This document shows positions 26,498 to 64,000 of a DNA stretch of 64,000 nucleotides, piece by piece. Below the pieces are notes generated by a model. It did no database searches, was not told the DNA's origin, and was given only the letters and a program-made list of their open reading frames with translations. A program made the translations under genes and the position numbers. This stretch comes from Escherichia coli (GTDB taxonomy: Bacteria > Pseudomonadota > Gammaproteobacteria > Enterobacterales > Enterobacteriaceae): NCBI RefSeq assembly GCF_016026235.1, contig NZ_CP065613.1. One strand, given 5' to 3'. Within the stretch, counting starts at the first letter, position 1; each line of letters starts with the position of its first letter.

Positions 26498-26504
26498 CAA
26501 TGTT

Positions 26505-26538: not shown

Positions 26539-26552
26539 TCATAAATTGCGCA

Positions 26553-27803: not shown

Positions 27804-27902
27804 AGTTATTATCTCTTCATGTCATATTGGGCGACGGCTTTCTGCCCCTCAGAAATAGCCGGGCCTGCATCTTGCGATACTGACCCGGCTTGTTATCAAC
27901 AC

Positions 27903-28844
27903 TTAATGGGTTTTGATGTAGCCGCGCACGCACTCTTCGACTAAGCCCCAGAACCAGTCGGTATCAATAGTGATGCCGACTTTGGTATTAGCGGGCTTGC
28001 CAAGAACGCCCAGCTCGTCGCAGACGGTACGCCCATAGCAAGGGCCACTGTTGACGTCCACTTCGACGTACATCTCCTGGGTTTTAATGCCATCAGGGTT
28101 AATCAGATAACCGATGCAGGTGGCGTCGTGCACCGGGCCGCCAGCCAGGCCGTAGTTTTCGAACTGGGTTTTGAGAGTGAAGTTCATGATGTCGCTGAAC
28201 AGCTCTCCGGCAGGGCCGCCTGCCCTTTCCATTCGTGCAATCACGTCCGGGGTGCAAACGGTCTGGTTGGTAAGATCGAGGCCCATCATCACTAATGGAA
28301 CGCCAGAAGTGAACACCACGCGTGCGGCTTCCGGGTCAGCAAAGATGTTGAACTCGGCAGATGGCGTGAAGTTGCCTGTACCGTAAGCGCCGCCCATTAG
28401 CACAATTTCACGAATTTTAGGCAGGATCGCGGGTTGCATACGCATTGCCACCGCGATATTTGAAAGCGGACCAACCGGCACCAGAGTGATATCGCCATCG
28501 CTTGCCATCAGGGTATCAATGATGTATTTCACCGCGTGGGTACTTTCTGCCTGGCGGGTCAGCGGCTCGAATACCGGGCCATCCAGTCCGGTTTCACCGT
28601 GAATATTATCGGCAACGATTTGTTGACGCATAATGGGTTGCGGCATCCCCGCATAAACCGGAACATTAATCTCCAGTTTCTGGCAAACATTCAGGCCATT
28701 AATTAATGTTTTATCAAGCGTCTGATTACCCGCTACAATAGTGATGCCTAATAAATCTATTGCCGGATGTTTCGCTGCCATCATCATTGCAATAGCATCA
28801 TCATGACCCGGATCACAATCCAGAATAATTTTTCTCTTTTCCAT
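27903..28844 (-). CDS. rihB: Pyrimidine-specific ribonucleoside hydrolase
   Basis: 313-aa ORF with the nucleoside hydrolase N-terminal aspartate motif DCDPGHDDA. Confidence 0.9.
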
Positions 28845-29012
28845 TGTTTATTTCCTCTGTTTCCAGTTGCGTTATTTTTTCTACAGCAAAGAAAATTCGA
28901 CCGGGCCGATGATTGAATCTTAACAACAGCGTACGTATGCTAAATATGAGAAATCTCACAGCGGATAAACATCGTGAAAGAAATCCACAATAATGATCTT
29001 AAGCTGCAATTG

Positions 29013-29672
29013 ATGAGTGAATCCGCGTTTAAGGATTGCTTTTTAACGGATGTTTCAGCCGATACGCGGCTGTTTCATTTTTTAGCGCGTGACTACATTG
29101 TGCAGGAAGGGCAACAGCCGTCCTGGCTGTTTTACCTGACGCGAGGCCGCGCCAGGCTTTACGCCACGCTAGCTAATGGTCGCGTGTCGCTGATCGATTT
29201 CTTTGCCGCCCCCTGTTTTATTGGTGAGATTGAGTTAATCGATAAAGACCATGAACCGCGTGCGGTACAGGCTATTGAAGAGTGTTGGTGCCTTGCGCTC
29301 CCTATGAAACATTACCGTCCGCTGTTATTAAACGACACCCTATTTTTACGAAAACTTTGCGTCACCTTAAGTCATAAAAATTATCGTAATATTGTTTCTT
29401 TAACTCAGAATCAATCATTTCCGTTAGTGAATCGCCTGGCAGCATTTATATTACTCTCACAAGAAGGTGATCTTTATCACGAAAAGCATACGCAAGCGGC
29501 AGAGTATTTAGGCGTTTCTTATCGACATCTTTTATATGTTCTCGCGCAATTCATTCACGACGGTTTATTAATTAAAAGCAAGAAAGGATATCTAATTAAA
29601 AACAGAAAGCAGTTGTCAGGGCTGGCGCTGGAGATGGACCCGGAGAATAAATTCTCCGGGATGATGCAGTAA
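29013..29672 (+). CDS. yeiL: CRP/FNR-family transcriptional regulator YeiL
   Basis: ORF 28974..29672 (GTG); conserved start [11 protein letters not shown] at ATG 29013; cNMP-binding-like domain plus C-terminal HTH. Confidence 0.85.
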
Positions 29673-29695
29673 AAATTATTTGCAATAGCGCGATT

Positions 29696-29732
29696 GCCGG
29701 ATACAACGCTTGATGCGTTTTATCCGGTCTAC
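29696..29732. repeat. REP-like palindrome downstream of psuT
   Basis: gccggatacaacgcttgatgcgttttatccggtctac between convergent yeiL and psuT. Confidence 0.55.
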
Positions 29733-29742
29733 AAATTGAGCA

Positions 29743-30993
29743 TTACGCCAGACCAATAAAGAACCCGGCAATGGTCGCGCTCATCAGGTTGGAAAGCGTT
29801 GCTGCTGCCAGCGCCCGTAAACCAAGCTGAGCGATTTCCGGTGCACGTTTTGGCGAAATAGCCGAAAATGCGCCAACGACAACACCGATAGAACCAAAGT
29901 TAGCAAAACCACAAAGCGCAAAGGAGATAATCGCAATGGTTTTCACTTCCAGCGTGCCGCCCGTTTGCAGGTATGGGGAGAAACTCAGGTAAGCGACGAA
30001 TTCGTTAATCGCCAGTTTCTGCCCAATCAGGCTACCCGCAAGGTTGGCATCACTCCAGTCCACACCCATGATCCACGCCAGCGGTGCCAGCACATAGCCA
30101 AAAATACTTTCCAGAGAAGCATTGGTAAAACCAAACCAACCGCCAATTCCGCCGATAATGCCATTAATCAGCGCAATAATTGCGACAAACGCCATTACCA
30201 CCGTCGCCACACCGGCGGCGATTTTCAACCCGGTCATCGCACCGCTCGCCGCCGCTTCGATAAAGCTTTTTGGCGGCGTTTCACTGAACGACAGATTTTC
30301 AAATGTGACCTGCGAAGGCTCGGTTGCCGGACTAAGAATACGTGCAAACAAAATACCGCCGGGGATCGCCATCAGCGATGCCGCCAACAGGTAGTCAATT
30401 GGTACGCCCATTCCGGCATAACCAATCATCATCGAACCCGCAATGGACGCCATCCCGCTACAAATTGCGGTAAACAACTCGTTGCGATTCATGCGATCGA
30501 TAAACGGTTTAACGATCGCCGGGATCTCATTTTGCCCGAGGAAAATAGTAGTAACCGCAACAAAAGATTCGATTTTGCTGATGTTGAGGGCTTTCTGGAA
30601 AATGCTGCCAAGGATGCGAATCAGCAGCCCCATCACGCCAATGTAGTACAGCAGACTGATGAGCGCAGTGACGAAGATAATCGCCGGGAGTACGCGAAAG
30701 GCGAAGATAAAGCCTGCGCCATCAAACAGGACATCCATTTTCGGCCCAACCAGCGAACCAAAAATGAAGGCGCTACCGGCATCACTGTAAGACATCACTT
30801 TATGAACACCTAATGCCGCCTGTTCTACTGCCCATTTTCCCGGCGGAAAATAGAGCATGATGCCACCAATAGCGATTTGCAGCAGCAGTGCGGCTCCAAC
30901 CGTGCGCAAACTGATGCTCTTTTTATTTACCGACAACAGAAATGCTATTGCCAGTAACACCACCATCCCCACAACACTTCTCATTATATCCAT
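29743..30993 (-). CDS. psuT: Putative pseudouridine transporter (CNT family)
   Basis: 416-aa ORF; paralog of nupX. Confidence 0.9.
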   Translation of the reverse strand: MDIMRSVVGMVVLLAIAFLLSVNKKSISLRTVGAALLLQIAIGGIMLYFPPGKWAVEQAALGVHKVMSYSDAGSAFIFGSLVGPKMDVLFDGAGFIFAFRVLPAIIFVTALISLLYYIGVMGLLIRILGSIFQKALNISKIESFVAVTTIFLGQNEIPAIVKPFIDRMNRNELFTAICSGMASIAGSMMIGYAGMGVPIDYLLAASLMAIPGGILFARILSPATEPSQVTFENLSFSETPPKSFIEAAASGAMTGLKIAAGVATVVMAFVAIIALINGIIGGIGGWFGFTNASLESIFGYVLAPLAWIMGVDWSDANLAGSLIGQKLAINEFVAYLSFSPYLQTGGTLEVKTIAIISFALCGFANFGSIGVVVGAFSAISPKRAPEIAQLGLRALAAATLSNLMSATIAGFFIGLA

Positions 30994-31086
30994 AATGATT
31001 TTCCCTTCATGCCAGTAAACCCGGCGTCAGCGCCAGGTTTCGGTATGTATGATCAGTACGGGCGACGGCTTTCTGCCCGTCAGAAA

Positions 31087-32021
31087 TTAACCCGCGAGAC
31101 GCTGATATTCTTTGGCAATTTCGCTCGCCAGAATGGCGTTGTTGAACACCAGCTGGATGTTGGATTTCAGGCTGTCACCGCCGGTCAGCTCAGCAACGCG
31201 CGCCAGCAGGAATGGCGTACTTTCTTTACCAATAACACCCTGCGCTTCAGCTTCAGCTACCGCCTGATCGCCGCATTGATAGTGTGTTCCGGCATAGCAA
31301 ACTGTTCCGGGATCGGGTTCGCTACCACGAGGCCACCGTTCAGCCCGCTTTGCCATTTCACCGCCATTGCACGGGCAATTTCGCTGGCGCTGTCGAGACG
31401 AATGCTGACGTCAAACGGGCTGGTACGGCAGAAAAACGCAGGCAGCGCTTTAGTCTGATAGCCAATTAACGGCACACCGAAGGTTTCTAAATACTCAGTG
31501 GTTAATCCTAAATCGAGAATAGATTTCGCCCCGGCACAAACAACGGTGACATTAGTATTTGCCAGTTCTTGCAAATCGGCAGAAATATCGAAGGTATGTT
31601 CCGCCCCGCGATGAACACCACCAATTCCCCCGGTGGCAAATACTTTAATTCCGGCAAGCGCCGCAATAATCATCGTTGAAGCCACAGTGGTTGCGCCATT
31701 TTTTCCGGCGGCAACAACAAAAGGTAAATCGCGACGACTAACTTTGGTCACGTTATGCCCTTCACGACCCAGTAATTCAATTTCTTCTTTGCTTAAACCC
31801 ACTTTCATCACGCCACCAATAATGGCGATAGTGGCAGGTACTGCGCCCTGTTTACGAATAGTTTCTTCAACTTCAATTGCGGTCTGGGCATTTTGTGGGA
31901 ACGGCATCCCGTGAGAAATAATGGTCGATTCCAGCGCCACAACCGGTTTTTTGTTTTTTAAAGCGTCCTGCACTTCCGGGGAAATTTGTAATAATTCAGG
32001 GGAAATTTTTAATTCAGACAT
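31087..32021 (-). pseudogene. psuG: Pseudouridine-5'-phosphate glycosidase with a disrupted reading frame
   Basis: N-terminal 252 residues in ORF 31257..32021 (ends ...PEHTINAAIRR*); conserved C-terminal 60 residues DQAVAEAEAQG...EYQRLAG are in another frame (ORF 31087..31356). Frames meet at plus 31261-31274 cgcctgatcgccgc. Confidence 0.75.
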
Positions 32022-32950
32022 TCTGCGTTCTCCACTAACGATATAACGTTGGCAATCGATAAATCGGGGTTATTGGTGTATTCACAGGAGAGCGCCATTG
32101 ACGAACATCCCTGTGCGAAACGAACAGATTCGGCAAACGGCATTCCGTCTACCCAACACGAAGCAAGTCCCGCCATCATGGCATCGCCCGCTCCGGTAAC
32201 ATTAATAACATTGGTTTTGATCGAGGCAGACCAGCCACTTTCACCGCTGATTTCACTGTAATAAACGCCATCGCCGCCCATGCTCAATACCAATCGGTTC
32301 AGGCCATGTTGATGGAACCAGGCAGCAACTTTTGCCACATCTTCACGCCCTGACAGCGCAATCCCACTCAGTGTTTCCGCTTCAAGGCGGTTTGGCTTGA
32401 GAGTATGGATTTGACTTAATCGCTCGCGTACTTTGACGCATTTCCACGCGGAAACCGGATCGACAAATACGGGTACGTTGGCAGCATTATCCAGAATCCA
32501 TGCCAGTGCCTCTTCACTGATATTACAGTCCGCGACAATGACCTTTGCCCTCTGAATAAATTCACGGTGCTGTGCGAGATATTCAGCTGTAATAGCGTTG
32601 CTAATATTCATGTCATTTATAGCAACCAGCATTTCACCAGTATTATCGAGTAATGATAAATAGCTCGACGTATTTTCTCCCGGCACAATCAGGCATTTAT
32701 CGACATAAACGCCAGATTGATTGGTTTGCGTTAGCAGCGATTGGCCATAAAAATCACTGCCTACGGCGCTCAGTAGCCAGGCTTTATTACCCAGCAACGC
32801 CAGGTTTTGTGCAATATTGCGCCCTACCCCACCAGGCGTAAATTTTATTTTACCTGGATTTGAATCCGCATAATTTAATGATTCATGTGAATATCCGGCG
32901 ACATCAATATTCGCCGAGCCTATAATTACGACATAATCCTTTTCGCGCAT
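32009..32950 (-). CDS. psuK: Pseudouridine kinase (PfkB family)
   Basis: 313-aa ORF MREKDYVVIIGSANIDVAGY... with GGVGRNIA motif; overlaps the psuG start by 13 nt. Confidence 0.9.
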   Translation of the reverse strand: MREKDYVVIIGSANIDVAGYSHESLNYADSNPGKIKFTPGGVGRNIAQNLALLGNKAWLLSAVGSDFYGQSLLTQTNQSGVYVDKCLIVPGENTSSYLSLLDNTGEMLVAINDMNISNAITAEYLAQHREFIQRAKVIVADCNISEEALAWILDNAANVPVFVDPVSAWKCVKVRERLSQIHTLKPNRLEAETLSGIALSGREDVAKVAAWFHQHGLNRLVLSMGGDGVYYSEISGESGWSASIKTNVINVTGAGDAMMAGLASCWVDGMPFAESVRFAQGCSSMALSCEYTNNPDLSIANVISLVENAECLN

Positions 32951-33017
32951 AGCACGTCCTCTGGTAAAAAATTACCAACCCTGTCAATCCACAAGAATAT
33001 AGATACTGCAAAGACGG

Positions 33018-33053
33018 TTTAAACATGTGTTCATATTTAAACATGTGCTCATA
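33018..33053. repeat. Tandem 18-bp direct repeat upstream of psuK
   Basis: tttaaacatgtgttcata (33018-33035) immediately repeated as tttaaacatgtgctcata (33036-33053), 17/18 identical; a third gcatgt follows at 33058-33063. Confidence 0.6.
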
Positions 33054-33190
33054 GTATGCATGTTTTACGTAAAGTAAATTGCCGCCAGAGAGGCAAAGCG
33101 GGCAGATTTGAGCAGGCTCACAAAATGCGATTAAATGCCAGAATTACAAAAGCGAGGAATTTGTGACGGGATGCACAGAACATGAACACT

Positions 33191-33216
33191 AAAAAAGGGC
33201 AGAAAAGAATCTGCCC
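33191..33216 (-). terminator. Rho-independent terminator, probably ending the fruBKA transcript
   Basis: Minus strand GGGCAGA-ttcttt-TCTGCCC followed by TTTTTT (plus-strand A tract 33191-33196), about 160 nt past the fruA stop. Confidence 0.55.
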
Positions 33217-33373
33217 TTGAGGAAATAACCTTAGTGTTTGATGAACGTTTCAGGTTTCTACTGAAAGATAAAACCATTTAAATTCATAAAATTACATTCA
33301 CAAACCGGTCATTCTCTTTGCGCTCATCCAATGATACAGGGCAGTAAATTTCTGCCCTGTAACACACCTTTTA

Positions 33374-35065
33374 TTACGCGGCTTTCGCTACTGCGTCCAC
33401 TTCCGGACGTTTCAGGAAGGCATAGGCCAAACCCGCCACCAGCGTACCGGCAATAATTGCTACCAGGTAACCCAGTACCGGCGTAATAGCGCCAGGGATC
33501 AGCAGAACAAACAGACCACCGTGCGGTGCCATCAGTTTCGCACCAATCGCCATTGAGATTGCGCCAGTCAGCGCCCCACCAACGATACAACACGGCAGCA
33601 CACGCATCGGATCACGAGCAGCAAACGGAATTGCACCTTCCGAAATAAAGCACAGACCAAGAACCAGAGCGGCTTTGCCACCTTCCTGCTGCGCTTTGTC
33701 AAATTTGCGACGCGCCACCATTGTTGCCAGACCCATTGCCAGCGGTGGCACCATACCTGCTGCCATAATCGCCGCCATCGGGCCATAGGTTTGAGTACTC
33801 AGCAGACCCACACCGAATGCGTACGCTGCTTTATTTACCGGACCGCCCATGTCAGTACACATCATGCCACCGAGGATCGCCCCCAGCAGAACCGCATTCG
33901 CAGTCCCCATGGTCTGCAGCCAGTGAGTCAACCCTTCGAGAATGCCAGCAACCGGTTTACCGATCAGGTAGATCATCGCCAGACCGACCACCAGACTGGA
34001 AATTAGCGGAATGATCAGGATCGGTTTCAGCGCCTCCATACTCTGTGGCAGTTTCAGTTGCGTACTGATTAACTTCGCAATGTAACCAGCCAGGAAGCCC
34101 GCAATAATACCGCCAATGAAGCCAGAACCGGTGCTGACCGCCAGCATACCGCCAATCAGACCCGGCGTGAGACCCGGACGATCGGCAATGGAGAAGGCAA
34201 TGTAACCTGCCAGTACCGGCACCATCAGCGCAAAGGCTGAACCACCACCAATCTGCATCAGCGCCGCTGCCAACGTACCCGGCTCTTTAAACGCTTCGAT
34301 ACCAAAAGCAAAAGAAAGCGCGATACACAGACCACCTGCAACGACCATCGGCAGCATGTAAGAGACGCCCGTCAGCAAGTGACGGTATGCGCCTGCACTC
34401 TCTTTCTTACCTTCAGAGGTCGCCGTTTGAGCTTTGCCCACCGGTTCATACGGCGTTGCTTCAGCAACCGCTTTATCCAGTTCCTGCGCGGTTTTCTTCA
34501 GCGCCAGACCGGTAGAGGTACGATACATCGGTTTACCAGCAAATTTTGCCAGATCCACTTCGATATCTGCCGCCACAATCACCAGATCCGCTGCGACTAC
34601 TTCTTCGGGAGTGATTGCATTACCCGCGCCAACAGAACCACGGGTTTCAACTTTCACCCACCAGCCACGTTTTTTCGCTTCGGTTTCAATGGCTTCAGCC
34701 GCCATAAAGGTGTGTGCTACGCCAGTCGGGCAAGCAGTCACCGCAACTACGCGTTTCGGACCGCTGGCGGCAACCGGTGCTGTCGCAGCGACCGGCGCAG
34801 TGTAAGGTTTCGCATGGCCTTTGGCTTCACTCAGGAACAGCTCAGGGTGCGCAACTGCCCGGGAAATATCGCCCAGCCAGACATTTTTACCGTTCAGCGC
34901 GCTGTCATTCGGGATGGAATCACCGAGAACAATCGCCATTTCTGCGTCGTTCGGATTGTCGATGATTTCCAGTTTTGCTTTTCGCGCCGCCGCGCCCAGC
35001 AGGGTCTTCGCCATATAGGCGCGTGCCTGACCGAGATTAGCGTCAATAATCAGCAGCGTTTTCAT
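33374..35065 (-). CDS. fruA: PTS fructose-specific EIIB'BC component
   Basis: 563-aa ORF MKTLLIIDANLGQARAYMAKTLL... with EIIB cysteine (VTACPTGVAHT) and a polytopic EIIC domain. Confidence 0.95.
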   Translation of the reverse strand: MKTLLIIDANLGQARAYMAKTLLGAAARKAKLEIIDNPNDAEMAIVLGDSIPNDSALNGKNVWLGDISRAVAHPELFLSEAKGHAKPYTAPVAATAPVAASGPKRVVAVTACPTGVAHTFMAAEAIETEAKKRGWWVKVETRGSVGAGNAITPEEVVAADLVIVAADIEVDLAKFAGKPMYRTSTGLALKKTAQELDKAVAEATPYEPVGKAQTATSEGKKESAGAYRHLLTGVSYMLPMVVAGGLCIALSFAFGIEAFKEPGTLAAALMQIGGGSAFALMVPVLAGYIAFSIADRPGLTPGLIGGMLAVSTGSGFIGGIIAGFLAGYIAKLISTQLKLPQSMEALKPILIIPLISSLVVGLAMIYLIGKPVAGILEGLTHWLQTMGTANAVLLGAILGGMMCTDMGGPVNKAAYAFGVGLLSTQTYGPMAAIMAAGMVPPLAMGLATMVARRKFDKAQQEGGKAALVLGLCFISEGAIPFAARDPMRVLPCCIVGGALTGAISMAIGAKLMAPHGGLFVLLIPGAITPVLGYLVAIIAGTLVAGLAYAFLKRPEVDAVAKAA

Positions 35066-35081
35066 TATGCCTCTCCTGCTG

Positions 35082-36020
35082 TCAGTTAAAAGGTTGTAAG
35101 TCGACGCGCGCCATCATTGCGGCCAACTGCGGACGATCGGTAATACCCACATTGCTTTGACTTACCGCCAGGGCTGCAACAGCAGTCGCCAGACGCAGTG
35201 TGTGTTCACTGGATTCACGCATTAGCAAGCCATAAATCAGGCCACCAACCATAGAATCCCCTGCGCCAACGGTGCTTACGACATCGACTGACGGTGGTTT
35301 GGCGATCCATTCGCCGGAGGCATTAACCCAAAGCGCGCCTTCGGCACCCAGTGAAATAACGACATGCGCAATACCTTGTTCACGCAGCGCATGCGCAGCT
35401 TCAATCACATCTTTCATTTCAGGCAGTTTACGGCCTGCCCAGATTTCCAGCTCGCGGCGGTTAGGTTTCACCAGCCACGGTGCCGCTTTCAAACCTGCTA
35501 CTAACGCTTCACGACTACTATCAAAGATAATGCAAGGACACTGACTACGCAGGCGAGTCATCCAGTCGGTGAACGCTTCCGGGCTGACGCCTGACGGTAA
35601 GCTTCCGCTGACACAGACCATATCGAACTGACCGAGCCAGCTCAGAGAATCAGTCACAAAGCGTTCCCAGTCGGCGGGAGTGACTTCAAAACCCGAGAAG
35701 TTGAAGTCGGTCACTTCGCCGTCTTTTTCCGTCAGCTTAACGTTAATTCGGGTGCGCCCCTGTACAACCTGGAAACGGTTGGCAATGCCCAGCTCGCTGA
35801 ACAGTTGCTGAAAACCATCCTGATTGTCTTTACCCAGGAAGCCGCCAACGGTGACATCAATTCCCAGGTCTTTTAATACTTTGGCCACGTTGATGCCTTT
35901 ACCCGCCGCATGCAGACCGGTGGTTTTCACCAGGTTCACTTCGCCGCGTTCAATTTCCGGGCAGAAACCAACAAGGTCATAAGCCGGATTAAGGGTGATA
36001 GTAGCAACACGTCTGCTCAT
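35082..36020 (-). CDS. fruK: 1-phosphofructokinase
   Basis: 312-aa PfkB-family [22 protein letters not shown]... Confidence 0.95.
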   Translation of the reverse strand: MSRRVATITLNPAYDLVGFCPEIERGEVNLVKTTGLHAAGKGINVAKVLKDLGIDVTVGGFLGKDNQDGFQQLFSELGIANRFQVVQGRTRINVKLTEKDGEVTDFNFSGFEVTPADWERFVTDSLSWLGQFDMVCVSGSLPSGVSPEAFTDWMTRLRSQCPCIIFDSSREALVAGLKAAPWLVKPNRRELEIWAGRKLPEMKDVIEAAHALREQGIAHVVISLGAEGALWVNASGEWIAKPPSVDVVSTVGAGDSMVGGLIYGLLMRESSEHTLRLATAVAALAVSQSNVGITDRPQLAAMMARVDLQPFN

Positions 36021-37150
36021 TATGCGCCCTCCCCAAGACCAGCAGCGATAGCGTCGCCGATTGCTTTCAGCGCCTGTTCAGCATCTGCACCCTGGGCGGT
36101 AAAGCGTAGGCGATGACCCTTCTTAACGCCAAGTGCCACAACTTTCATCAGACTACGTCCGTTTGCCGGTTTGCCGGTGCCATCAAGGTTTGTCACGGTA
36201 ATATCACTGTTAAATTGTTTAATGGTGTTGACCAGCATGGTACCTGGACGAGCATGCAGGCCGTGTTCATTGCGCACCACAAACTCCGCGCTTAACACGT
36301 CGTCGGTCGGCGCATCATCGCTGGTCAGCAGCGCCAGCAACGTTGCCGCATCCGCTTTCAGCAAGCGGTCAGCTTTATTGTCGAGCAACAAATCAGCGAG
36401 ACGCTTAAGAACCGCAATGGGCTGATCGTCATTCATCGCCACACTCACCAGCATGGCTGCCGTTTCGCCGTCCATATCAAAAGCATTTGCCGCACGGCTT
36501 ACAGCAATCGCGCTACGCAAATTGCCTTCGGCGCTATCGCTCAGCCAGATGCCCTGTCCGAGGTTCAGCGGTTGTTCATTGATGGCTTTGGTGACGAAAG
36601 TGGCGTCAACTGCCCCCGCTTCTTTCAGACGCGCAGCGTTCAGCGCCTGAAGAGTCAGCAGATCGCTGGCGACGATATCCAGCGTCAGCATTTCGTTGTC
36701 GAGCTTCAACTGCTCACTCTGCTTTTCGCCCATCAGCAATGCGCGAAGTTCTTCTGCTGTTGTTGCTGACTTCAGTTGTTCAGCAACGGAATCATCGCTC
36801 AGTACGTGGGTCAGCTGGCGTAGCAGGCCCAGATGCTCATCCGAGCTGGCAGCAATACCGATCGCTACGTACGCTACCTGACCGTCACCCCAAGTGACGC
36901 CTTCCGGGAACTGAAATACCTGAACGCCGGTTTTCAGCACCTGATCGCGGGTGTCGGTAGTGCCGTGTGGAATAGCAATACCATTGCCGAGGAACGTTGA
37001 GGTTTGCTGTTCGCGCGCCAGCATGCCATTGACGTAGCCTTCTGCTACATTACCGGCCTGCACCAGCGCCGCAGCGACCTGGCGAATCGCCTCTTCTTTG
37101 TCTCCGGCCTTTTCGCCCGGATGGATGTCCTGTACGGATAACTGGAACAT
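36020..37150 (-). CDS. fruB: PTS fructose-specific EIIA-M-FPr fusion (diphosphoryl transfer protein)
   Basis: 376-aa ORF with N-terminal EIIA and C-terminal HPr-like domain ([12 protein letters not shown]); stop overlaps the fruK start. Confidence 0.95.
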
Positions 37151-37164
37151 AGTTCTCCTCTCTT

Positions 37165-37185
37165 GCTGAATTGAAACGATTCAGC
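37165..37185. promoter_or_regulatory. Cra (FruR)-like operator dyad close to the fruB start
   Basis: gctgaattgaaacgattcagc, a palindrome containing TGAAACGATTCAGC (Cra consensus GCTGAAtCGaTTCAGC-like). Confidence 0.45.
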
Positions 37186-37236
37186 TTCTATGAGAAAAAA
37201 AGCGCCAACCTGGCTTAGGGTTAAAGACAAGATCGC

Positions 37237-37252
37237 GCTGAAACGTTTCAAG
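37237..37252. promoter_or_regulatory. Cra (FruR)-like operator in the fruB promoter region
   Basis: gctgaaacgtttcaag, a near-perfect TGAAAC/GTTTCA dyad. Confidence 0.5.
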
Positions 37253-37517
37253 AAAGCATAATACTTCTGTTTCAGCACGCAAGGAAAGCCGTAAAGTTAT
37301 GAGCAAAAGTTTGATGTGCTGCACAATTTTTTGTCATTTTTCCGAATTGCTGATGGGAAAATCCGTTATCAGCAATTTCATTTCAGCAGCGTCAGCAGCC
37401 AATCAGCAACAGTGAAATAGCATTTTGATTATTCGTGGCGCTTTTGATTTCGCTGTCTGTTTATTTTCTGACAAGCAGCGTAAACTCCGCGTCTTCCTCT
37501 TCCAGTGATCGACCAGC

Positions 37518-38699
37518 ATGCATAACTCCCCCGCAGTCTCCAGCGCGAAATCGTTTGACCTGACCTCGACGGCGTTTTTAATCGTTGCCTTTCTCACCGG
37601 TATTGCGGGCGCTCTGCAAACCCCGACACTCAGTATTTTTCTTACCGATGAAGTACATGCCCGTCCGGCGATGGTGGGATTCTTCTTTACCGGCAGCGCT
37701 GTCATTGGGATTCTGGTGAGTCAGTTTCTCGCCGGGCGCTCTGATAAGCGCGGCGATCGCAAATCGCTGATTGTCTTTTGCTGCCTGTTAGGCGTGCTGG
37801 CCTGCACCCTTTTTGCCTGGAATCGCAACTACTTTGTTTTGCTATTCGTTGGCGTCTTTCTTAGCAGCTTTGGCTCGACCGCTAACCCGCAAATGTTTGC
37901 CCTTGCCCGTGAACATGCCGACAAAACCGGACGTGAGGCGGTGATGTTCAGCTCTTTTTTACGCGCTCAGGTTTCACTGGCATGGGTCATTGGCCCACCG
38001 CTGGCTTATGCCTTAGCGATGGGTTTCAGCTTTACGGTAATGTATCTGAGCGCAGCGGTAGCATTTATTGTTTGCGGCGTGATGGTGTGGCTGTTTTTAC
38101 CGTCGATGCAAAAAGAGCTTCCGCTGGCGACCGGCACGGTTGAAGCGCCGCGCCGTAACCGTCGCGATACGCTGCTGCTGTTTGTCATTTGTACATTGAT
38201 GTGGGGCTCGAACAGCCTGTACATCATCAACATGCCGCTATTTATTATCAACGAACTGCATCTTCCCGAGAAACTGGCCGGTGTGATGATGGGGACCGCC
38301 GCCGGGCTGGAAATCCCGACCATGTTGATTGCCGGATATTTTGCCAAACGTCTGGGTAAGCGTTTCTTAATGCGCGTTGCTGCCGTGGGTGGCGTCTGTT
38401 TTTACGCAGGAATGCTGATGGCGCATTCACCTGCCATTCTGTTGGGCTTGCAGCTGCTAAATGCTATTTTTATTGGCATTCTGGGCGGTATCGGGATGCT
38501 CTATTTTCAGGATCTGATGCCCGGTCAGGCAGGTTCAGCCACCACGCTCTATACCAACACGTCGCGCGTGGGCTGGATCATCGCAGGATCAGTGGCGGGC
38601 ATCGTCGCCGAGATCTGGAATTATCACGCTGTGTTCTGGTTTGCGATGGTGATGATTATCGCCACTCTGTTTTGCTTACTGCGGATTAAAGATGTTTAA
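37518..38699 (+). CDS. setB: Sugar efflux transporter B (MFS)
   Basis: 393-aa 12-[30 protein letters not shown]... Confidence 0.9.
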
Positions 38700-38950
38700 G
38701 GCGCGGTCAGCATTTCCAGATCGATAAGCCAGGTCATTGCCTGCTGACGCGAGTTACCGCACATTTCAGCGCTGGCTTGTAAGCCTGCACAGACTTTCGG
38801 CCGCAGTGGCGAGGTGAAAATTTTACAGCGTTGCTGTTCATCAAGCTGAATGCAGGGCGTATTGGCGGGCTTGCCATCTGGCATACCGGGAATAGGGCTG
38901 GAAATTGAAGGGGCAGTGCAACACGCCCCGCAACCCGGACGGCATTCCAT
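38696..38950 (-). CDS. yeiW: YeiW, small cysteine-rich protein (UPF0153)
   Basis: ORF 38696..39082; conserved start [18 protein letters not shown] at ATG 38950; 84 aa; stop overlaps the setB stop. Confidence 0.8.
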
Positions 38951-39104
38951 ACGTTGTTCTCTTAAGGTTAACCACCGGATTGATGAGCGCGCACAGTACC
39001 ACCTTTTTTGCACCAGCAAAAGTGCGAATACCACTTGCCCGAAAGGCCCGTCGCGAGTACTTTGTCGCGATATTTTTGACATTTTCGACTACAGGAATTT
39101 TTCG

Positions 39105-56594: not shown

Positions 56595-57602
56595 TTAATT
56601 GCCGCCAGACGTCCGGCGCTGCAATTGGTCGCGCAAATTCGGCGGCGTGCCTTTAATGGTCAAGGTATCGGTTGCTGGATCCCAGAAGATGCGTTCACCT
56701 AACAGCATCGCATCAAAGTTAATAGTCAAGCCACCGCCGCTACCGGCAAACTTCGTCAACTGACGCAGTGTGCTACGGTCTGCCGGGAAGCTCTCTTCCA
56801 GTTCGTAGCCTTTTTCAGCCGCAAACTCCGTGAAGCTCACTTCGCTTACGCCTGCCAGCTCTTTCGACAGCGATTCCAGTTCAATCTCTTCGCCTGCCTG
56901 CAGCTGCTCATTACAGTAGCTATAAACCTGCTGGCGCACGTTCTGTCGCTCTGCTTTATCCAGTTGTGCTTCGGCAGTGAAATCATCAACCGCTTGCAAC
57001 AGCCCACGGTTTTGCGCTTTCGCGTTTAACCCTTCGCTGGCCCCGAGGAAATCCATAAAGAAATCCGCCACTTTGCGCCCTACTCGCCCTTTCAGGAAAG
57101 TGAGATAGCGGGTCGACTCTGGATTGGTTTCCCATTCGGTTAAATCGATACGCGCAACAATATCCGCATGATTGATATCAAGATAATGGGTTGGGTTGAT
57201 GTCGAGATTTTCGTTAACGCGCATACTGCTCAGGTTGCTCAGGACTGCCACCAGCAGATACTCCACCGCCAGATAACGGTAGTGGCAAAACAGCACGAAT
57301 CCACCGTCAGCAAAAGGATATTTCGCTAATTCGTCACGCAGGCGACCGGTTGCCGCGCGGCTAAATGCCAGAAAGTCCTCTTCGCCCTGACGCTGTAAGC
57401 GCAGCGTCTGCGCCAGTTCACTCTCTTCGCTAAACAAGCCGTAAGCTTTATTTTTGGCGCTATAGACCCGATGCAGTTCTGCCACCATCTCAACGACGGT
57501 TTCTGTCGGTTCCAGCAATGAATCGCGCAACACCAGCTCAAGGTTCTGCTCATCACGCTTGATAAGCTGGTGCAGAGCAATCTGGTTGATATCCAGACTC
57601 AT
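56595..57602 (-). CDS. yejK: Nucleoid-associated protein YejK (NdpA)
   Basis: 335-aa [33 protein letters not shown]... Confidence 0.9.
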
Positions 57603-57783
57603 GATAAACTCTCCTTTAAGACCGGGCGGTATTCAACCACCGCCGGTTAAGCGACGCAATAAAAGATGGCGGTCATTTTACAGAAGGCAGCGTAACGAGA
57701 ATGATTTAACGCATAAAAAAGCAGAAAAAAAACCGTTGCTACGGTAATATGTTGCCCTTTCATCAACTAACTGATTTCGATTT

Positions 57784-58011
57784 ATGCCACAAATTTCCCG
57801 CTACAGTGATGAACAGGTTGAACAATTGCTCGCAGAGCTGCTCAACGTACTGGAAAAACATAAGGCTCCGACCGACCTTTCCCTGATGGTGTTAGGCAAC
57901 ATGGTCACTAACCTTATCAACACCAGCATTGCCCCGGCCCAACGCCAGGCAATTGCCAACTCTTTTGCCCGCGCCTTACAGTCCTCTATCAACGAAGACA
58001 AAGCGCACTAA
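57784..58011 (+). CDS. yejL: YejL, UPF0352 small protein
   Basis: 75-aa [44 protein letters not shown]... Confidence 0.9.
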
Positions 58012-58030
58012 GGGAAACAGATAACAGGTT

Positions 58031-59791
58031 ATGGTAACTCATCGTCAGCGCTACCGTGAAAAAGTCTCCCAAATGGTCAGTTGGGGGCACTGGTTTGCAC
58101 TGTTCAATATTCTGCTTTCGCTCGTCATTGGCAGCCGTTACCTGTTTATCGCCGACTGGCCGACCACGCTTGCTGGTCGCATTTATTCCTACGTAAGCAT
58201 TATCGGCCATTTCAGCTTCCTGGTGTTCGCCACCTATTTGCTGATCCTCTTCCCGCTGACCTTTATCGTCGGCTCCCAGAGGCTGATGAGGTTTTTGTCC
58301 GTCATTCTGGCAACGGCGGGAATGACGCTATTACTGATCGATAGCGAAGTCTTTACTCGTTTCCATCTCCATCTTAATCCCATCGTCTGGCAACTGGTTA
58401 TCAACCCAGACGAAAATGAGATGGCGCGCGACTGGCAGCTGATGTTCATCAGCGTGCCGGTTATTTTATTGCTTGAACTGGTGTTTGCGACGTGGAGCTG
58501 GCAAAAGCTGCGCAGCCTGACGCGTCGTCGACGCTTCGCGCGCCCGCTGGCCGCATTCTTATTTATCGCCTTTATCGCCTCGCATGTGGTGTATATCTGG
58601 GCCGATGCCAACTTCTATCGCCCGATCACCATGCAGCGCGCTAACCTGCCGCTTTCGTACCCGATGACGGCGCGACGTTTTCTTGAGAAGCATGGCCTGC
58701 TTGATGCGCAGGAATATCAACGCCGTCTTATTGAGCAAGGTAATCCAGACGCCGTTTCCGTTCAGTATCCGTTAAGCGAACTGCGCTATCGCGATATGGG
58801 CACTGGGCAGAATGTGCTGTTGATTACTGTCGATGGCCTGAACTACTCACGCTTCGAGAAGCAGATGCCTGCGCTGGCAGGTTTTGCTGAGCAAAATATT
58901 TCGTTCACGCGCCATATGAGCTCCGGCAACACTACAGACAACGGCATCTTTGGCCTGTTCTATGGCATCTCGCCGAGCTATATGGACGGCATTCTGTCGA
59001 CCCGTACGCCTGCGGCATTAATTACTGCGCTTAATCAGCAAGGCTATCAGCTGGGGTTATTCTCATCAGATGGCTTTACCAGCCCGCTGTATCGCCAGGC
59101 ATTGTTGTCAGATTTCTCGATGCCGAGCGTACGCACCCAATCCGACGAGCAGACCGCCACGCAGTGGATCAACTGGCTGGGACGCTACGCACAAGAAGAT
59201 AACCGCTGGTTCTCGTGGGTTTCTTTCAATGGTACTAACATTGACGACAGCAATCAGCAGGCATTTGCGCGGAAATATAGCCGGGCGGCAGGCAATGTCG
59301 ATGACCAGATCTACCGCGTGCTCAATGCACTGCGTGATTCTGGCAAACTGGACAATACGGTGGTGATTATCACTGCCGGTCGGGGTATTCCACTGAGCGA
59401 AGAGGAAGAAACCTTTGACTGGTCCCACGGTCATCTGCAGGTGCCATTAGTGATTCACTGGCCAGGCACGCCGGCGCAGCGTATTAATGCTCTGACTGAT
59501 CATACCGATCTGATGACGACGCTGATGCAACGCCTGCTACATGTCAGCACACCTGCCAGCGAATATTCGCAAGGTCAGGATTTGTTCAACCCTCAACGCC
59601 GTCATTACTGGGTTACCGCAGCGGATAACGATACGCTGGCAATTACCACCCCGAAAAAGACGCTGGTGCTGAACAATAACGGTAAATACCGCACTTACAA
59701 CTTACGTGGTGAAAGAGTGAAAGATGAAAAACCACAGTTAAGTTTGTTATTGCAAGTACTGACAGATGAGAAGCGTTTTATCGCTAACTGA
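58031..59791 (+). CDS. yejM: Inner-membrane LPS/cardiolipin homeostasis protein YejM (PbgA/LapC), sulfatase-like periplasmic domain
   Basis: 586-aa ORF with five N-terminal TM helices and an alkaline-phosphatase-superfamily domain. Confidence 0.9.
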   Translation: MVTHRQRYREKVSQMVSWGHWFALFNILLSLVIGSRYLFIADWPTTLAGRIYSYVSIIGHFSFLVFATYLLILFPLTFIVGSQRLMRFLSVILATAGMTLLLIDSEVFTRFHLHLNPIVWQLVINPDENEMARDWQLMFISVPVILLLELVFATWSWQKLRSLTRRRRFARPLAAFLFIAFIASHVVYIWADANFYRPITMQRANLPLSYPMTARRFLEKHGLLDAQEYQRRLIEQGNPDAVSVQYPLSELRYRDMGTGQNVLLITVDGLNYSRFEKQMPALAGFAEQNISFTRHMSSGNTTDNGIFGLFYGISPSYMDGILSTRTPAALITALNQQGYQLGLFSSDGFTSPLYRQALLSDFSMPSVRTQSDEQTATQWINWLGRYAQEDNRWFSWVSFNGTNIDDSNQQAFARKYSRAAGNVDDQIYRVLNALRDSGKLDNTVVIITAGRGIPLSEEEETFDWSHGHLQVPLVIHWPGTPAQRINALTDHTDLMTTLMQRLLHVSTPASEYSQGQDLFNPQRRHYWVTAADNDTLAITTPKKTLVLNNNGKYRTYNLRGERVKDEKPQLSLLLQVLTDEKRFIAN

Positions 59792-59812
59792 TTAATTATA
59801 AATCAGTTAGCG
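59782..59812 (+). other. Perfect 12-bp stem-loop spanning the yejM stop codon
   Basis: cgctaactgatt-aattata-aatcagttagcg; the TGA stop (59789-59791) lies in the 5' arm; no U tract follows. Confidence 0.5.
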
Positions 59813-59865
59813 AAATATCTTACTTGCAATCGGTGTGGAAAACGGTAGTATTAGCAGCCACGAGT

Positions 59866-59942
59866 CGGCACGTAGCGCAGCCTGGTAGCGCACCGTCATG
59901 GGGTGTCGGGGGTCGGAGGTTCAAATCCTCTCGTGCCGACCA
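59866..59942 (+). tRNA. proL: tRNA-Pro (anticodon GGG)
   Basis: 77-nt CGGCACGTAGCGCAGCCTGGTAGCGCACCGTCATGGGGTGTCGGGGGTCGGAGGTTCAAATCCTCTCGTGCCGACCA with cloverleaf-compatible stems, GGG anticodon and encoded CCA end. Confidence 0.9.
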
Positions 59943-59955
59943 AAAATCCCAAAAA

Positions 59956-59981
59956 AACCAACCGTAAAGGTTGGTTTTTTT
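59956..59981 (+). terminator. Rho-independent terminator of proL
   Basis: aaccaacc-gtaaa-ggttggtt followed by a T7 run. Confidence 0.8.
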
Positions 59982-60042
59982 ATATCTGCATTTAATTCGA
60001 TAAACAGACCGCGACACATCACGGCCTGTTTATTGTCTGTTA

Positions 60043-62634
60043 TCAGAACGTCCAGACCACACCCGCCTGGGTATTCCACGGCGATTCTACCCCTGCGCCA
60101 TTGCCATAGCTGACTGACAAATGACCGCTTAACGTCGGGGTAAACGATGACCTTATCCCAGCCTGATAAACGCCACTGGTTCCAGCCACATCATTATTAA
60201 ATTTGCCATCGTCATTAACTTTCACCTGGTTAGAATCGGCGTATTCCTGACGTACGGCGGCTTTCAGCCAGGGTTCCAGCGTCGTACCGTTTTGCAGGTC
60301 CATGTGATAGCTTACCGCCGTTCCCGCTTCAGCGCGTAATATCCGGGTATTTCCCACATCCGCGCGCATGCCGTTTGATAACGTGTAGTCCTGACCATCT
60401 GTGGTAAAGCCGGTAAAGGCCAGATAGGGTCTAACACTCCACAATCCGTCAACCCAACGGAACCCGCTCTCAACATGAGCACCCGCGCCGTTACTATTGT
60501 AATCGCCAAACGCTGTTGCCCCATTACTCATCTTGCCATGGATGGTGTTGGCAAAACGGTCAACTTTCACCACCCCATCAACATAGGCACCGTTCTGATG
60601 CTCCCAACCGGCATAAGCCCCCAGGGTATAGCTATCGACATTGCCTTTGCCGCCGCGATCAAAACCAATATCAGAATGAGAGTAACCAAAGAACAAGCCG
60701 CGAATTGTGCTGCTTTCTTCACGGGAGAAACGGCTATCGATACCGAGCGTCAGGCCCGTCAATGTTTGCTCAAAACCAGCTCCCGCATCAGTGGTCACGT
60801 TGTTGCGGGTGTTAATTGCCGAACTCCACATCGCCGTATCGTAACTAACGCCTTTTACGCTACCAAGACGCTCACGCACGGTGTCCAGTTCTGCATCAAA
60901 TACCAGCGGTTGTGCTGCCGCCATATTTAGCACATCAGTGGTTGAAGGGGTAATTTGCGCGCGATTCTCTGCCAGACTCCAGCTATGATTGCCATTATCC
61001 AGCAAGGTATATTCATACGTACCGATATCAACAACGCCTCCGGCATTGCCCAACGTAAATGCAGCATCACCGCCGCCCGTTGTTACCAGTGTAAGGCTAT
61101 CTCCTGCTGCCGGGCTGGCACCGGTGTCCGTCACGAATATTTTGAAATCACCTGTTGCCTGGCCAGTGACGTTAAGCTGATCGCTCTGATGATTGGCCAT
61201 ATCGGTACGCATATAAAAATTGCCGTTTCCCGACAGGGTATTGGTGGTCAACGTTATGAAATTTTCCGCACTTGCCGTCACTGATGAACGAGTCACTGGC
61301 TCAGCCATCATAATCACATTTGCGCCAGACATCGCAAGGTTGGCTAAGTTGAGGAGGGTGTTTTGGTTCGTCGTAGTGATATTGGCAATGATGGTCCATG
61401 CGCTATTTTCGAGCGAAACATCCGCTTTGCTGGTATCCACGGCACCATGCGTTCTAAAAGAAGCGCCCTCAGAAACCACGACCTTACCCACCAACATAGC
61501 GGGTGCATAATTTATTTGCGGCTTCATGACCTCAAGAATGCCATCATTCCCTCTGACTGAAACGTTAACCATTGTGCCAGCCCAGACGTTAGCGCGGCCA
61601 TTGTTGATAACCATATTTTCAGAGATGGCTTTAGAGGAATACGTTATACTTCCATTCTGATCTGATCGACCGAGATCATATACCGCATTTGCCTGCACTC
61701 TCGTACCAGTATCCTTTCCCAGCGATTGCATAGTGGCATGCTCATCAAGGATAGTGTCAATGGCCTGCGTGTCCTCCATAACAATGAGCCCGGAACCATC
61801 ATCCAGTTCATAATTTTTTGACACACCATCTTTTATACTAAATTGGCCTTTACTGTTTGTACCACTCACTTCCAGCGCATTCGTTGAGACAATTAATTTT
61901 CCGCCTGCTTTTTTATCAACGCCAGTTGCAGTCCCGCCATCCATAACCTCCAGTAAGCCGCCACTATCTACAGTAGTATTATAAGCGAAGTCATTTTCTT
62001 CAACTCGCAAACTTCCGCCGTTTTCCAACAGCATATTGTTAGCAATACCATTCTTGATTTCGAACTGACCGAGACGGTTTGTTCCGAATACCTCCATGAC
62101 CCGCGTGCTTGCTTTAATAGCACCGCCTGCTTTCTGATCTACCGCAATCGCTAATCCCCCCTCTTTAACCTCCAGTAATCCTCCCTTTTCGATAGCGGCA
62201 AGGACGGTAATCCCATCTTTTTCAACGATTAAGCGCCCGCCTTTAATCGTGGGATCATTCGCTGCGCCATAAACCTGTAGCACACCATTATTGAGGGTAG
62301 TCTGGTTTGCCGCGCCACCCATTTGAACAATTTGATAACCATCATTTAATACGGAGTATTCTGCGGTGCCATTCATTTCAATGTACTGATACCCGCCGTT
62401 AATTTCAGTATTACTACTTATACCAAATTCTTTAATATGCTGTTCTCCGCCAGGATTGATTTTCGTATTATTGGCGGTCCCATAAACCAGCTGGATATCT
62501 TTTTCCAGGACAACACCATCAACTGTCTCACCATACTCAACTGTTGATGCCAATGCTATGGGTGAATATAACGCTGTAGCCACCAGAACAGATATTGCGG
62601 AACGACAAAGAGAAACAGAACCAGATTGATGCAT
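60043..62634 (-). CDS. yejO: Type Va autotransporter (adhesin-like) YejO, uninterrupted
   Basis: 863-aa ORF with signal peptide MHQSGSVSLCRSAISVLVATALYSPIALA, repetitive Gly/Asn/Thr-rich passenger and C-terminal beta-barrel ending ...QAGVVWTF. Confidence 0.85.
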   Translation of the reverse strand: MHQSGSVSLCRSAISVLVATALYSPIALASTVEYGETVDGVVLEKDIQLVYGTANNTKINPGGEQHIKEFGISSNTEINGGYQYIEMNGTAEYSVLNDGYQIVQMGGAANQTTLNNGVLQVYGAANDPTIKGGRLIVEKDGITVLAAIEKGGLLEVKEGGLAIAVDQKAGGAIKASTRVMEVFGTNRLGQFEIKNGIANNMLLENGGSLRVEENDFAYNTTVDSGGLLEVMDGGTATGVDKKAGGKLIVSTNALEVSGTNSKGQFSIKDGVSKNYELDDGSGLIVMEDTQAIDTILDEHATMQSLGKDTGTRVQANAVYDLGRSDQNGSITYSSKAISENMVINNGRANVWAGTMVNVSVRGNDGILEVMKPQINYAPAMLVGKVVVSEGASFRTHGAVDTSKADVSLENSAWTIIANITTTNQNTLLNLANLAMSGANVIMMAEPVTRSSVTASAENFITLTTNTLSGNGNFYMRTDMANHQSDQLNVTGQATGDFKIFVTDTGASPAAGDSLTLVTTGGGDAAFTLGNAGGVVDIGTYEYTLLDNGNHSWSLAENRAQITPSTTDVLNMAAAQPLVFDAELDTVRERLGSVKGVSYDTAMWSSAINTRNNVTTDAGAGFEQTLTGLTLGIDSRFSREESSTIRGLFFGYSHSDIGFDRGGKGNVDSYTLGAYAGWEHQNGAYVDGVVKVDRFANTIHGKMSNGATAFGDYNSNGAGAHVESGFRWVDGLWSVRPYLAFTGFTTDGQDYTLSNGMRADVGNTRILRAEAGTAVSYHMDLQNGTTLEPWLKAAVRQEYADSNQVKVNDDGKFNNDVAGTSGVYQAGIRSSFTPTLSGHLSVSYGNGAGVESPWNTQAGVVWTF

Positions 62635-62953
62635 TGAGCTTTCATCCTATGAAATTAATTGCTGTTAAAAGCATTGGGTACGGAAAATACCCATAGCTCC
62701 ATACCCGGAGTCAGTTTTTAAAAACTGTTTAAAGAAATGCACAAGTATTGTGATTGATTTTTTAGTTGTTTTTCTTGATGAGAAGCTGATGCAAAATTCC
62801 GTCTTTATAATGAAAATGATGCCAAAGCGAACGACAAGGTTGTAGTTTTCACTACATGTCCATACATAAAATGGGGTAACATTCACGCGCCTGGTAGCGA
62901 TACCAACGCTACGCTCAAACATAATGATTCTAATAAAACCTCAGGAGACTACT

Positions 62954-63601
62954 ATGCCTGAAGCAACGCCTTTTCAGGTGATGATTGTGGATGATCATCC
63001 ACTTATGCGACGCGGTGTTCGTCAGTTACTGGAGCTTGATCCTGGCTTTGAAGTGGTCGCCGAAGCGGGCGACGGCGCGAGTGCTATCGATCTGGCGAAT
63101 AGACTGGATATCGACGTGATCTTGCTGGATCTCAATATGAAAGGTATGAGTGGCCTGGATACCCTCAATGCCTTGCGCAGGGATGGCGTTACCGCGCAAA
63201 TTATTATCCTGACCGTATCAGATGCCTCCAGCGATGTCTTTGCGCTGATAGACGCAGGCGCAGACGGTTATCTGTTGAAAGACAGCGACCCGGAAGTGTT
63301 GCTGGAAGCGATTCGTGCCGGAGCGAAAGGCAGCAAAGTCTTTAGCGAACGCGTCAATCAGTACTTACATGAACGTGAAATGTTTGGCGCGGAAGAAGAT
63401 CCCTTCAGCGTGCTGACGGAGCGCGAGCTGGATGTTCTGCACGAGCTGGCACAGGGGCTGTCAAATAAACAGATTGCCTCGGTGTTGAATATTTCCGAGC
63501 AGACAGTAAAAGTACATATTCGCAATCTGCTGCGTAAACTCAATGTCCGCTCACGCGTGGCAGCCACCATTCTATTCCTGCAACAACGCGGGGCACAATA
63601 A
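62954..63601 (+). CDS. narP: Nitrate/nitrite response regulator NarP (NarL/FixJ family)
   Basis: ORF 62924..63601; conserved start MPEATPFQVMIVDDHPLMRRG at ATG 62954 with AGGAG upstream; receiver domain plus LuxR-type HTH. Confidence 0.95.
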   Translation: MPEATPFQVMIVDDHPLMRRGVRQLLELDPGFEVVAEAGDGASAIDLANRLDIDVILLDLNMKGMSGLDTLNALRRDGVTAQIIILTVSDASSDVFALIDAGADGYLLKDSDPEVLLEAIRAGAKGSKVFSERVNQYLHEREMFGAEEDPFSVLTERELDVLHELAQGLSNKQIASVLNISEQTVKVHIRNLLRKLNVRSRVAATILFLQQRGAQ

Positions 63602-63654
63602 AAATAGCCCGATGGATTTATCATCGGGCTGAGATTTATGACAAACGCAAAACT

Positions 63655-63751
63655 GCCTGATGCGCTACGCTTATCAGGCCTACGCGGATCGATCAATTTA
63701 TTGAATTCACACGATTGTGTAGGCCGGATAAGGCGTTCACGCCGCATCCGG
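63655..63751. repeat. BIME: two REP units in opposite orientation
   Basis: gcctgatgcgctacgcttatcaggcctac (63655-63683) and gtaggccggataaggcgttcacgccgcatccggc (63719-63751), between narP and the ccmH 3' end. Confidence 0.7.
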
Positions 63752-63811
63752 CATAAAATAAGCGCACTTTGTCATCAGTCTGGCCTGATGGAATCACCAT
63801 CGGGCCACTTT

Positions 63812-64000
63812 TTATTTACTCTCCTGCGGCGACAAATGTTGCATCGCCTGCGCGATACTACGTTCAATCACCGCACGGCGAGTATCGTTGGCAGGTAAGA
63901 GTTTCAACATCATCTCCCACGCGGCAACGGCTTCGCCAAATCGCTGCTGCTCAAAGGCATTAAACGCATACATGCTTAACACACGGATATTGCTGTGGTC
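63812..64000 (-). CDS. ccmH: C-terminal fragment of cytochrome c maturation protein CcmH (TPR-containing C-terminus); 5' end outside window
   Basis: Minus-strand frame ends ...IAQAMQHLSPQESK* with stop at 63812-63814 and is open to the window edge. Name is from the recalled C-terminal sequence and synteny after narP. Confidence 0.65.
   Translation of the reverse strand, partial: DHSNIRVLSMYAFNAFEQQRFGEAVAAWEMMLKLLPANDTRRAVIERSIAQAMQHLSPQESK

Follow-up and report, generated by a model that had tools for sequence, protein, structure and literature searches.

The window analysed here, a 64-kb stretch of Escherichia coli DNA (64,000 nucleotides), carries yejO in the slot between narP and proL/yejM, where the same neighbours are found in K-12, O157:H7, B, LF82 and draft assemblies (Table 1). 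This conserved position, together with full-length high identity, places the gene in the YejO orthologue group (b2190). Since yejO lies on the minus strand and proL on the plus strand, the two genes converge across a spacer of 100 bp, and the hairpin in this spacer is likely to be a bidirectional intrinsic terminator shared by both. The earlier note had described yejO as sitting directly downstream of proL, which holds for its position, but the two genes are convergent, with a probable shared terminator, and are not co-transcribed. Over the whole window Rfam models identified the tRNA of proL and the leader of rplY and nothing else, and no structured RNA or leader was detected near yejO.

Table 1. 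Features of the yejO locus in the window (positions are those of the 64,000-nt stretch).
Feature	Position	Strand	Evidence
proL, tRNA-Pro(GGG)	59866..59942	+	ARAGORN, Rfam
Hairpin A7-CCAACC-GTAAA-GGTTGG-T7 between proL and yejO	59950..59982		terminator scan (minus strand), sequence
yejO CDS, intact	60043..62634	-	ORF list; translation identical to public autotransporter YejO CAD7363902.1
Autotransporter beta-barrel translocator domain, aa 602-863, ends WTF	60046..60831	-	PF03797, TIGR01414, 3QQ2
Pertactin-type C-terminal passenger region, aa 431-555, autochaperone-type end of beta-helix	60970..61344	-	PF03212
Empty IS2 target site, GCTGG on gene strand, codon 352	61577..61581		comparison with FDAARGOS_943
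Three successive ~74-aa AIDA-type passenger repeat units	61690..62355	-	Pfam PF16168, TIGR04415
Predicted Sec signal peptide, aa 1-29	62548..62634	-	inspection and hydropathy profile
Empty IS5 target site, ATAA (TTAT on gene strand), CDS nt 64-67	62568..62571		blastn breakpoint, junction sequences
yejO-narP divergent intergenic region, 319 bp, with putative yejO promoter	62635..62953		sequence composition

In the ORF list yejO is a single open reading frame of 863 codons plus stop, with an ATG start and no internal stop, and an AGGA motif is present 10 nt upstream of the ATG. The protein begins MHQSGSVSLCRSAISVLVATALYSPIALA/STVEY, its first residues being rendered also as MHQSGSVSLCRSAISVLVATALYSPIALASTVEY, and ends GVVWTF. 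The translation is residue-for-residue identical to a public 863-aa protein, 'autotransporter YejO [Escherichia coli]' (CAD7363902.1 and others in NCBI and UniRef), and a hidden frameshift is therefore rejected. An N-terminal Sec signal peptide, as expected of type Va autotransporters, is predicted by inspection only, with Arg11, a hydrophobic core at aa 12-22 (mean Kyte-Doolittle up to 2.15) and an ALA/S cleavage motif at aa 27-30. The Pfam AIDA model PF16168 matches two stretches of the passenger with 171 bits, like the other two Pfam models far above its gathering score, and the repeat model TIGR04415 scores 62.5 bits against a cut-off of 30. The repeat units correspond to aa 94-167, 168-241 and 242-315, with unit-to-unit alignment z-scores of 10 and 21, and in a natural YejO variant of 789 aa precisely the second of these units (aa 168-241, nt 61912-62133) is missing, leaving a 74-aa gap. 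The pertactin model PF03212 follows with 155 bits (E=1.1e-45), and the barrel is recognised both by PF03797 (aa 602-841, 157.7 bits against a cut-off of 26) and by TIGR01414 (371.7 bits against a cut-off of 16). It terminates in the aromatic residue that forms the beta-signal for BAM. Sequence matches to solved structures divide along the protein: aa 48-295 match Ag43 (7KOH, E=8e-37; 4KH3), an AidA-I family adhesin (7KO9) and TibA (4Q1Q), and aa 459-863 match Vag8 (7AKV, E=7e-36), pertactin (1DAB) and the BrkA barrel (3QQ2, aligned over aa 582-863). The passenger is thus predicted to be beta-helical with a pertactin-type C-terminal region, and by its predicted domain set YejO is a chromosomal classical (type Va) autotransporter of E. 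coli.

The affinities of the passenger can be narrowed further. YejO has in common with Ag43, AIDA-I and TibA the type Va architecture, AIDA-type passenger repeats and the matches to 7KOH, 4KH3 and 4Q1Q, but its passenger is much shorter. The AIDA-type strand-loop-strand repeats that are a trait of self-associating autotransporters are present in the passenger, as recognised by TIGR04415 and PF16168 and by the ~74-aa units. Orthology with the Ag43/Cah family (NF033177) was rejected at 132 bits against a cut-off of 1200, and orthology with AIDA-I (NF033176) at 69.6 bits against the same cut-off. A cognate heptosyltransferase gene, a trait of the AIDA-I/TibA subgroup, was not found beside yejO in 59000-64000, where its neighbours are narP and proL. 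Pertactin, BrkA and Vag8 of Bordetella are homologous to YejO in the C-terminal pertactin region and the 12-stranded barrel (1DAB, 3QQ2, 7AKV) and differ in the N-terminal passenger, which in YejO is of the AIDA/Ag43 type.

The MG1655 record in RefSeq shows yejO (b2190) as a two-fragment pseudogene split by IS5K (2288919..2290113), which carries insH8. The element is 1,195 bp long and is inserted at nt 64-67 of the coding sequence, inside the signal peptide. Inactivation of K-12 yejO by IS5K has been described (PMC11005336), and the gene is among the 11 IS5 loci of BW25113 (PMC11677980). When the yejO region of the window was aligned with that of K-12 by blastn, two colinear blocks of 98.4-98.5% identity were obtained, with a 4-base overlap at the empty IS5 site of Table 1. 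In K-12 ATAA stands on both sides of IS5K as a 4-bp duplication, whereas the window has a single copy without any remnant of a duplication; the site in the window is unscarred and was never occupied. The K-12 gene is accordingly an orthologue in the same narP-yejO-proL-yejM slot that differs in having IS5K after nt 67, the one large difference within the gene, and the interrupted allele with IS5 and duplicated ATAA is not the one in the window. Removal of IS5K and one ATAA from K-12 yejO yields an 863-codon open frame with 97.1% amino acid identity to the window (838/863), and 23 of the 25 differences are located in the passenger (aa 72-444). Between this IS5-removed allele and the intact one of E. 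coli B there are just two nucleotide changes, both synonymous, and because the two are protein-identical the IS5 insertion in K-12 is recent.

The comparison extends to the whole window, which is colinear with K-12 2226295-2291546 at 98.2-98.7% identity over 64 kb; the exceptions are IS5K and a repeat copy of ~270 bp whose orientation is opposite to that in K-12. Up to the IS5 site the two sequences differ in length by no more than about 50 bp, and no extra segment longer than ~150 bp relative to K-12 was found across the 64-kb window, so that no insertion sequence of any family is present in it. A blastn search with IS5K against the whole window returned chance matches of 12-18 nt only, and a fuzzy search allowing up to 3 mismatches found no IS5 terminal repeats there. 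The earlier note had placed an IS5 insertion in K-12 yejO, and the MG1655 record, the blastn breakpoint and the literature (PMC11005336) show this to be correct. Its statement that no such insertion is present in yejO or elsewhere in the window is borne out by the colinearity and the IS5 search, and its proposal of a non-K-12 or pre-insertion lineage by the level of identity, the single ATAA and the existence of the near-identical strain FDAARGOS_943. These data support the conclusion that the window represents a non-K-12 lineage and that IS5K is a lineage-specific event of K-12, absent from the history of this strain.

The nearest relatives are informative about both yejO and its surroundings. 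Over 35000-59800 the window agrees with E. coli FDAARGOS_943 (NZ_CP065615.1), its nearest complete genome, at 100.0% identity (rounded), followed by O157:H7, O55:H7 and O145 strains at 99.3%, and it is 99.9-100% identical to FDAARGOS_943 and several draft assemblies. Three mobile elements in FDAARGOS_943 are absent from the window, namely an IS2, a P4-like element and an IS5-family element, and apart from the inserted elements the yejO-narP part is base-for-base identical in the two. The 1,331-bp IS2 breaks FDAARGOS_943 yejO at codon 352 with a 5-bp duplication, GCTGG, and the IS5-family element lies in psuG, at window ~31553. Three assemblies match the window at 100% identity across 57043-64000 or across the part of it that they cover; otherwise the exact window allele occurs in draft assemblies and, interrupted by IS2, in FDAARGOS_943. 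Public databases contain the identical 863-aa protein on at least 24 contigs, in the same gene neighbourhood (indexed in 39 collection blocks, with 24/24 contigs read positive), and the 90% cluster to which it belongs has 16,859 members.

The 13.4-kb P4-like element of FDAARGOS_943, itself hit by IS21, sits at window 59940-59944, the 3′ end of proL, and junction analysis shows this integration site to be unoccupied in the window. In GCA_901482675.2, phage capsid and protease genes are found in the expected place of yejM and are another occupant of the proL integration site, and in Shigella flexneri 1c a prophage remnant with gtrIC lies between tRNA-Pro and yejO (PMC4924310). The 3′ end of proL is a polymorphic integration site, empty in the window and, in relatives nearly identical to it, filled by a P4-like element or by phage genes.

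The frequency of intact and disrupted yejO was surveyed in 5,426 complete E. coli genomes. The K-12 yejO/IS5 junction, searched with a 140-nt probe and counted at 80% coverage or more, was present in 356 of these, and those named among the matches listed, ER1709, HB101 and a clone from an evolution experiment, are strains of the laboratory. The empty IS5 site was covered by a 141-nt probe in 5,018/5,426 genomes. At least 80% of the coding sequence was covered in 4,281 genomes, and the remainder, about 21%, keep 36% or less. Integrity was assessed in a sample of 60 evenly spaced rows of the CDS-coverage listing, among which about 34 had an uninterrupted gene of the exact length of 2,592 nt, 3 had the intact 789-aa variant and 6 differed by 1-2 nt in length; a further 3 were K-12 with IS5, 1 had IS2 and 13 were remnants. 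An apparently intact yejO is thus present in roughly one-half to two-thirds of complete genomes, a figure that hidden nonsense codons would lower somewhat. Intact annotated copies include those of O157:H7, E. coli B ATCC 11303 and ECKH-257, and the length of 863 aa is kept in distant lineages. YejO of O157:H7 (WP_000554210.1) has 863 aa in the same context, with 98.8% nucleotide identity to the window and 7 non-synonymous differences, and the protein of E. coli B ATCC 11303 (WP_000554226.1) is likewise full-length at 863 aa in the same context and shows allelic differences only. Alignment to K-12 and these references leaves the window, O157:H7 and B intact and K-12 split by IS5K, and the uninterrupted gene in the window is the usual, already catalogued wild-type state, which is known and not unusual.

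Disrupted copies are varied. In O104:H4 C227-11 yejO has a nonsense mutation with a stop at codon 789, in LF82, a B2 strain, a ~900-bp frameshifted remnant without the C-terminus is left, and other E. coli copies contain IS1A or IS1203 insertions. The gene is reported to be missing from ST131 (PMC5654935). As a repertoire of inactivation six kinds of event can be named: IS5 in K-12, IS2 in FDAARGOS_943, IS1A, IS1203, the O104:H4 nonsense mutation and LF82-type large deletions. Since yejO was lost many times in other lineages it is dispensable, and its recurrent loss and the variable occupancy of the proL site are in line with the known plasticity of the E. coli autotransporter repertoire and with tRNA-linked islands.

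Selection on the gene was estimated from pairwise Nei-Gojobori dN/dS between full-length alleles. Overall values were 0.09-0.39, or 0.09-0.31 when alleles with an internal stop are set aside; the barrel gave 0.06-0.18 and the passenger reached 0.58, and differences between alleles were mostly synonymous. Intact alleles are by these values under purifying selection, a pattern consistent with a gene in use. The 863-codon frame that the earlier note had described as continuous from signal peptide to barrel (WTF) is confirmed by the ORF list, Pfam and TIGR01414, and with respect to its suggestion of a potentially functional surface adhesin, a potentially functional autotransporter is plausible given that all domains are intact and that dN/dS is low.

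The most plausible reading of these observations, to which we assign a probability of about 0.9, is that yejO in the window is an ordinary, uninterrupted wild-type allele of a type Va autotransporter gene in its conserved narP-proL slot, and that IS5K was never acquired. By analogy with the type Va pathway, the 29-residue signal peptide would direct Sec export, after which BAM would insert the C-terminal ~260 residues as a 12-stranded barrel in the outer membrane. The linker and the pertactin-type region would then thread through the barrel and nucleate folding of the beta-helix, with the passenger translocated from the C- to the N-terminus, and the ~74-aa AIDA/Ag43-type units would be displayed on the cell surface. 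There, the most probable role of the passenger would be adhesion or the aggregation of cells with one another. The gene is probably expressed weakly or conditionally, an AT-rich promoter region (37% G+C) being typical of silenced cryptic E. coli adhesin genes.

It is an evenly balanced question whether the intact gene is in fact cryptic, that is, transcriptionally silent under most conditions, e.g. by H-NS, and encoding an adhesin on paper only unless a signal or a regulator mutation intervenes. The G+C content suggests silence, being 36.7% in the yejO-narP region and 37-43% at the 5′ end of yejO against 50.6% for the window, and a simple search of the gene strand upstream of yejO for consensus sigma-70 promoters gave none, which should be taken as uninformative and not as a negative result. 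In an RNA-seq compendium K-12 yejO belongs to the genes detected least (106 against ~3,250 for top-ranked genes, as tabulated), but these data are confounded by IS5 polarity. Among other autotransporter adhesins of K-12, yfaL, ypjA and ycgV are silent under laboratory conditions. On the other hand, the purifying selection seen among intact alleles implies that YejO is expressed and useful somewhere. A cryptic gene is compatible with an ordinary wild-type allele and does not exclude it. Phase switching of the agn43 kind operates by a Dam/OxyR-type mechanism, and for yejO such a switch was rejected since no GATC site occurs in the 319-bp upstream region.

More tentatively, one may speculate that yejO is a hotspot of repeated independent inactivation with purifying selection on the survivors, indicating niche-dependent antagonistic selection on a surface adhesin. 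If this were true, YejO would benefit the cell in some hosts and be a burden under pressure from the immune system, phages or laboratory culture, and the strain of the window would offer a clean, mobile-element-free, ancestor-like background for testing.

It is improbable that yejO is functionally decaying behind an open frame, as a pseudogene in waiting and a neutral leftover in a locus that is being lost. The independent disruptions by IS5, IS2, IS1A, IS1203 and the O104:H4 nonsense codon point in this direction, as do the LF82 remnant, the remnants of 36% coverage or less in about 21% of complete genomes and the reported absence from ST131 (PMC5654935). Against it stand the dN/dS values among intact alleles and in the barrel, the end-to-end match to all domain models and the maintenance of the 863-aa length in distant lineages. 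Least probable of all is that the passenger serves, in place of adhesion, in serum resistance or complement evasion as do BrkA and Vag8. In favour of this, Vag8 is the second-best solved-structure match and the barrel matches BrkA, but these matches cover only the generic pertactin region and barrel (aa 459-863), whereas the passenger at aa 48-295 matches Ag43, the AidA-I family adhesin and TibA and has AIDA-type repeats.

For the biology of E. coli the ordinary wild-type reading means that the window is not derived from K-12 and that its strain retains a full-length, uncharacterised autotransporter, with little import beyond housekeeping. Intactness is common among E. coli and so says little beyond the strain not being a K-12 derivative, and the repeated losses of yejO reveal no new principle. 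In the literature we found no experimental work on YejO function, only uses as a neutral locus, IS5 studies, gene-presence tables and proteomic lists, and this is because the model strain carries yejO as a pseudogene. An intact yejO in an IS-free context is the right template for characterising YejO, which gives the present allele a modest practical value.

In FDAARGOS_943, the complete genome nearest to the window, yejO is interrupted at codon 352 by a 1,331-bp IS2 flanked by a 5-bp duplication, GCTGG, and apart from this insertion the allele is 100% identical to the intact gene of the window, where the target site is empty. K-12 MG1655 yejO is interrupted by another element, the IS5 copy IS5K, whose duplication reads ATAA (TTAT in the direction of the gene) and whose site corresponds to window 62568-62571. 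This duplication differs from CTAA/CTAG, which have been named as the typical IS5 targets (PMC11677980).

The 3′ end of proL, the tRNA-Pro(GGG) gene convergent with yejO, is likewise occupied in FDAARGOS_943, in which a 13.4-kb P4-like element (25592-39016 of locus L003) sits exactly at this point; the same site is unoccupied in the window. Primase, capsid and Icd-like genes accompany its IS21-split integrase fragments, and the direct repeat that the element has (CTCTCGTGCC...) is imperfect. Phage capsid and protease genes are found at the same proL 3′-end point in the near-identical assembly GCA_901482675.2. In FDAARGOS_943, psuG is split by a frameshifted IS5-family element of about 0.9 kb, and psuK contains an internal stop. 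Since the alignment of the window runs straight through the site of the IS5-family insertion, its psuG is uninterrupted.

Features located in the window and the comparisons by which they were defined
Feature	Window position	Location	Comparison
GC-rich element, ~272 bp	2849-3120	between yohP and dusC	K-12 MG1655
IS5-family element site	~31553-31555	psuG	alignment with FDAARGOS_943
P4-like element insertion point	59940-59944	3′ end of proL	FDAARGOS_943 junctions
Empty IS2 target site	61577-61581	yejO codon 352	FDAARGOS_943
74-aa passenger repeat unit	61912-62133	YejO aa 168-241	789-aa variant

The GC-rich element is reversed in orientation in its K-12 MG1655 counterpart (2229106-2229376), and is 88% identical between the two genomes as against ~98% for the flanks. 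It is a dispersed repeat without annotation, present at a median of 3 and a maximum of 8 places per E. coli genome, and matched no family in an Rfam search of the window.

In three sampled genomes (H130, H134 and H136) the megablast match to the yejO coding sequence begins at query base 4, which suggests a putative difference inside the start codon (window 62632-62634). An intact 789-aa YejO variant (e.g. WP_000554212.1 of E. coli EC21Z-083), encountered in 3 of 60 evenly spaced rows of the genome sample, precisely lacks the 74-aa unit and looks like a case of varying repeat number in the passenger.
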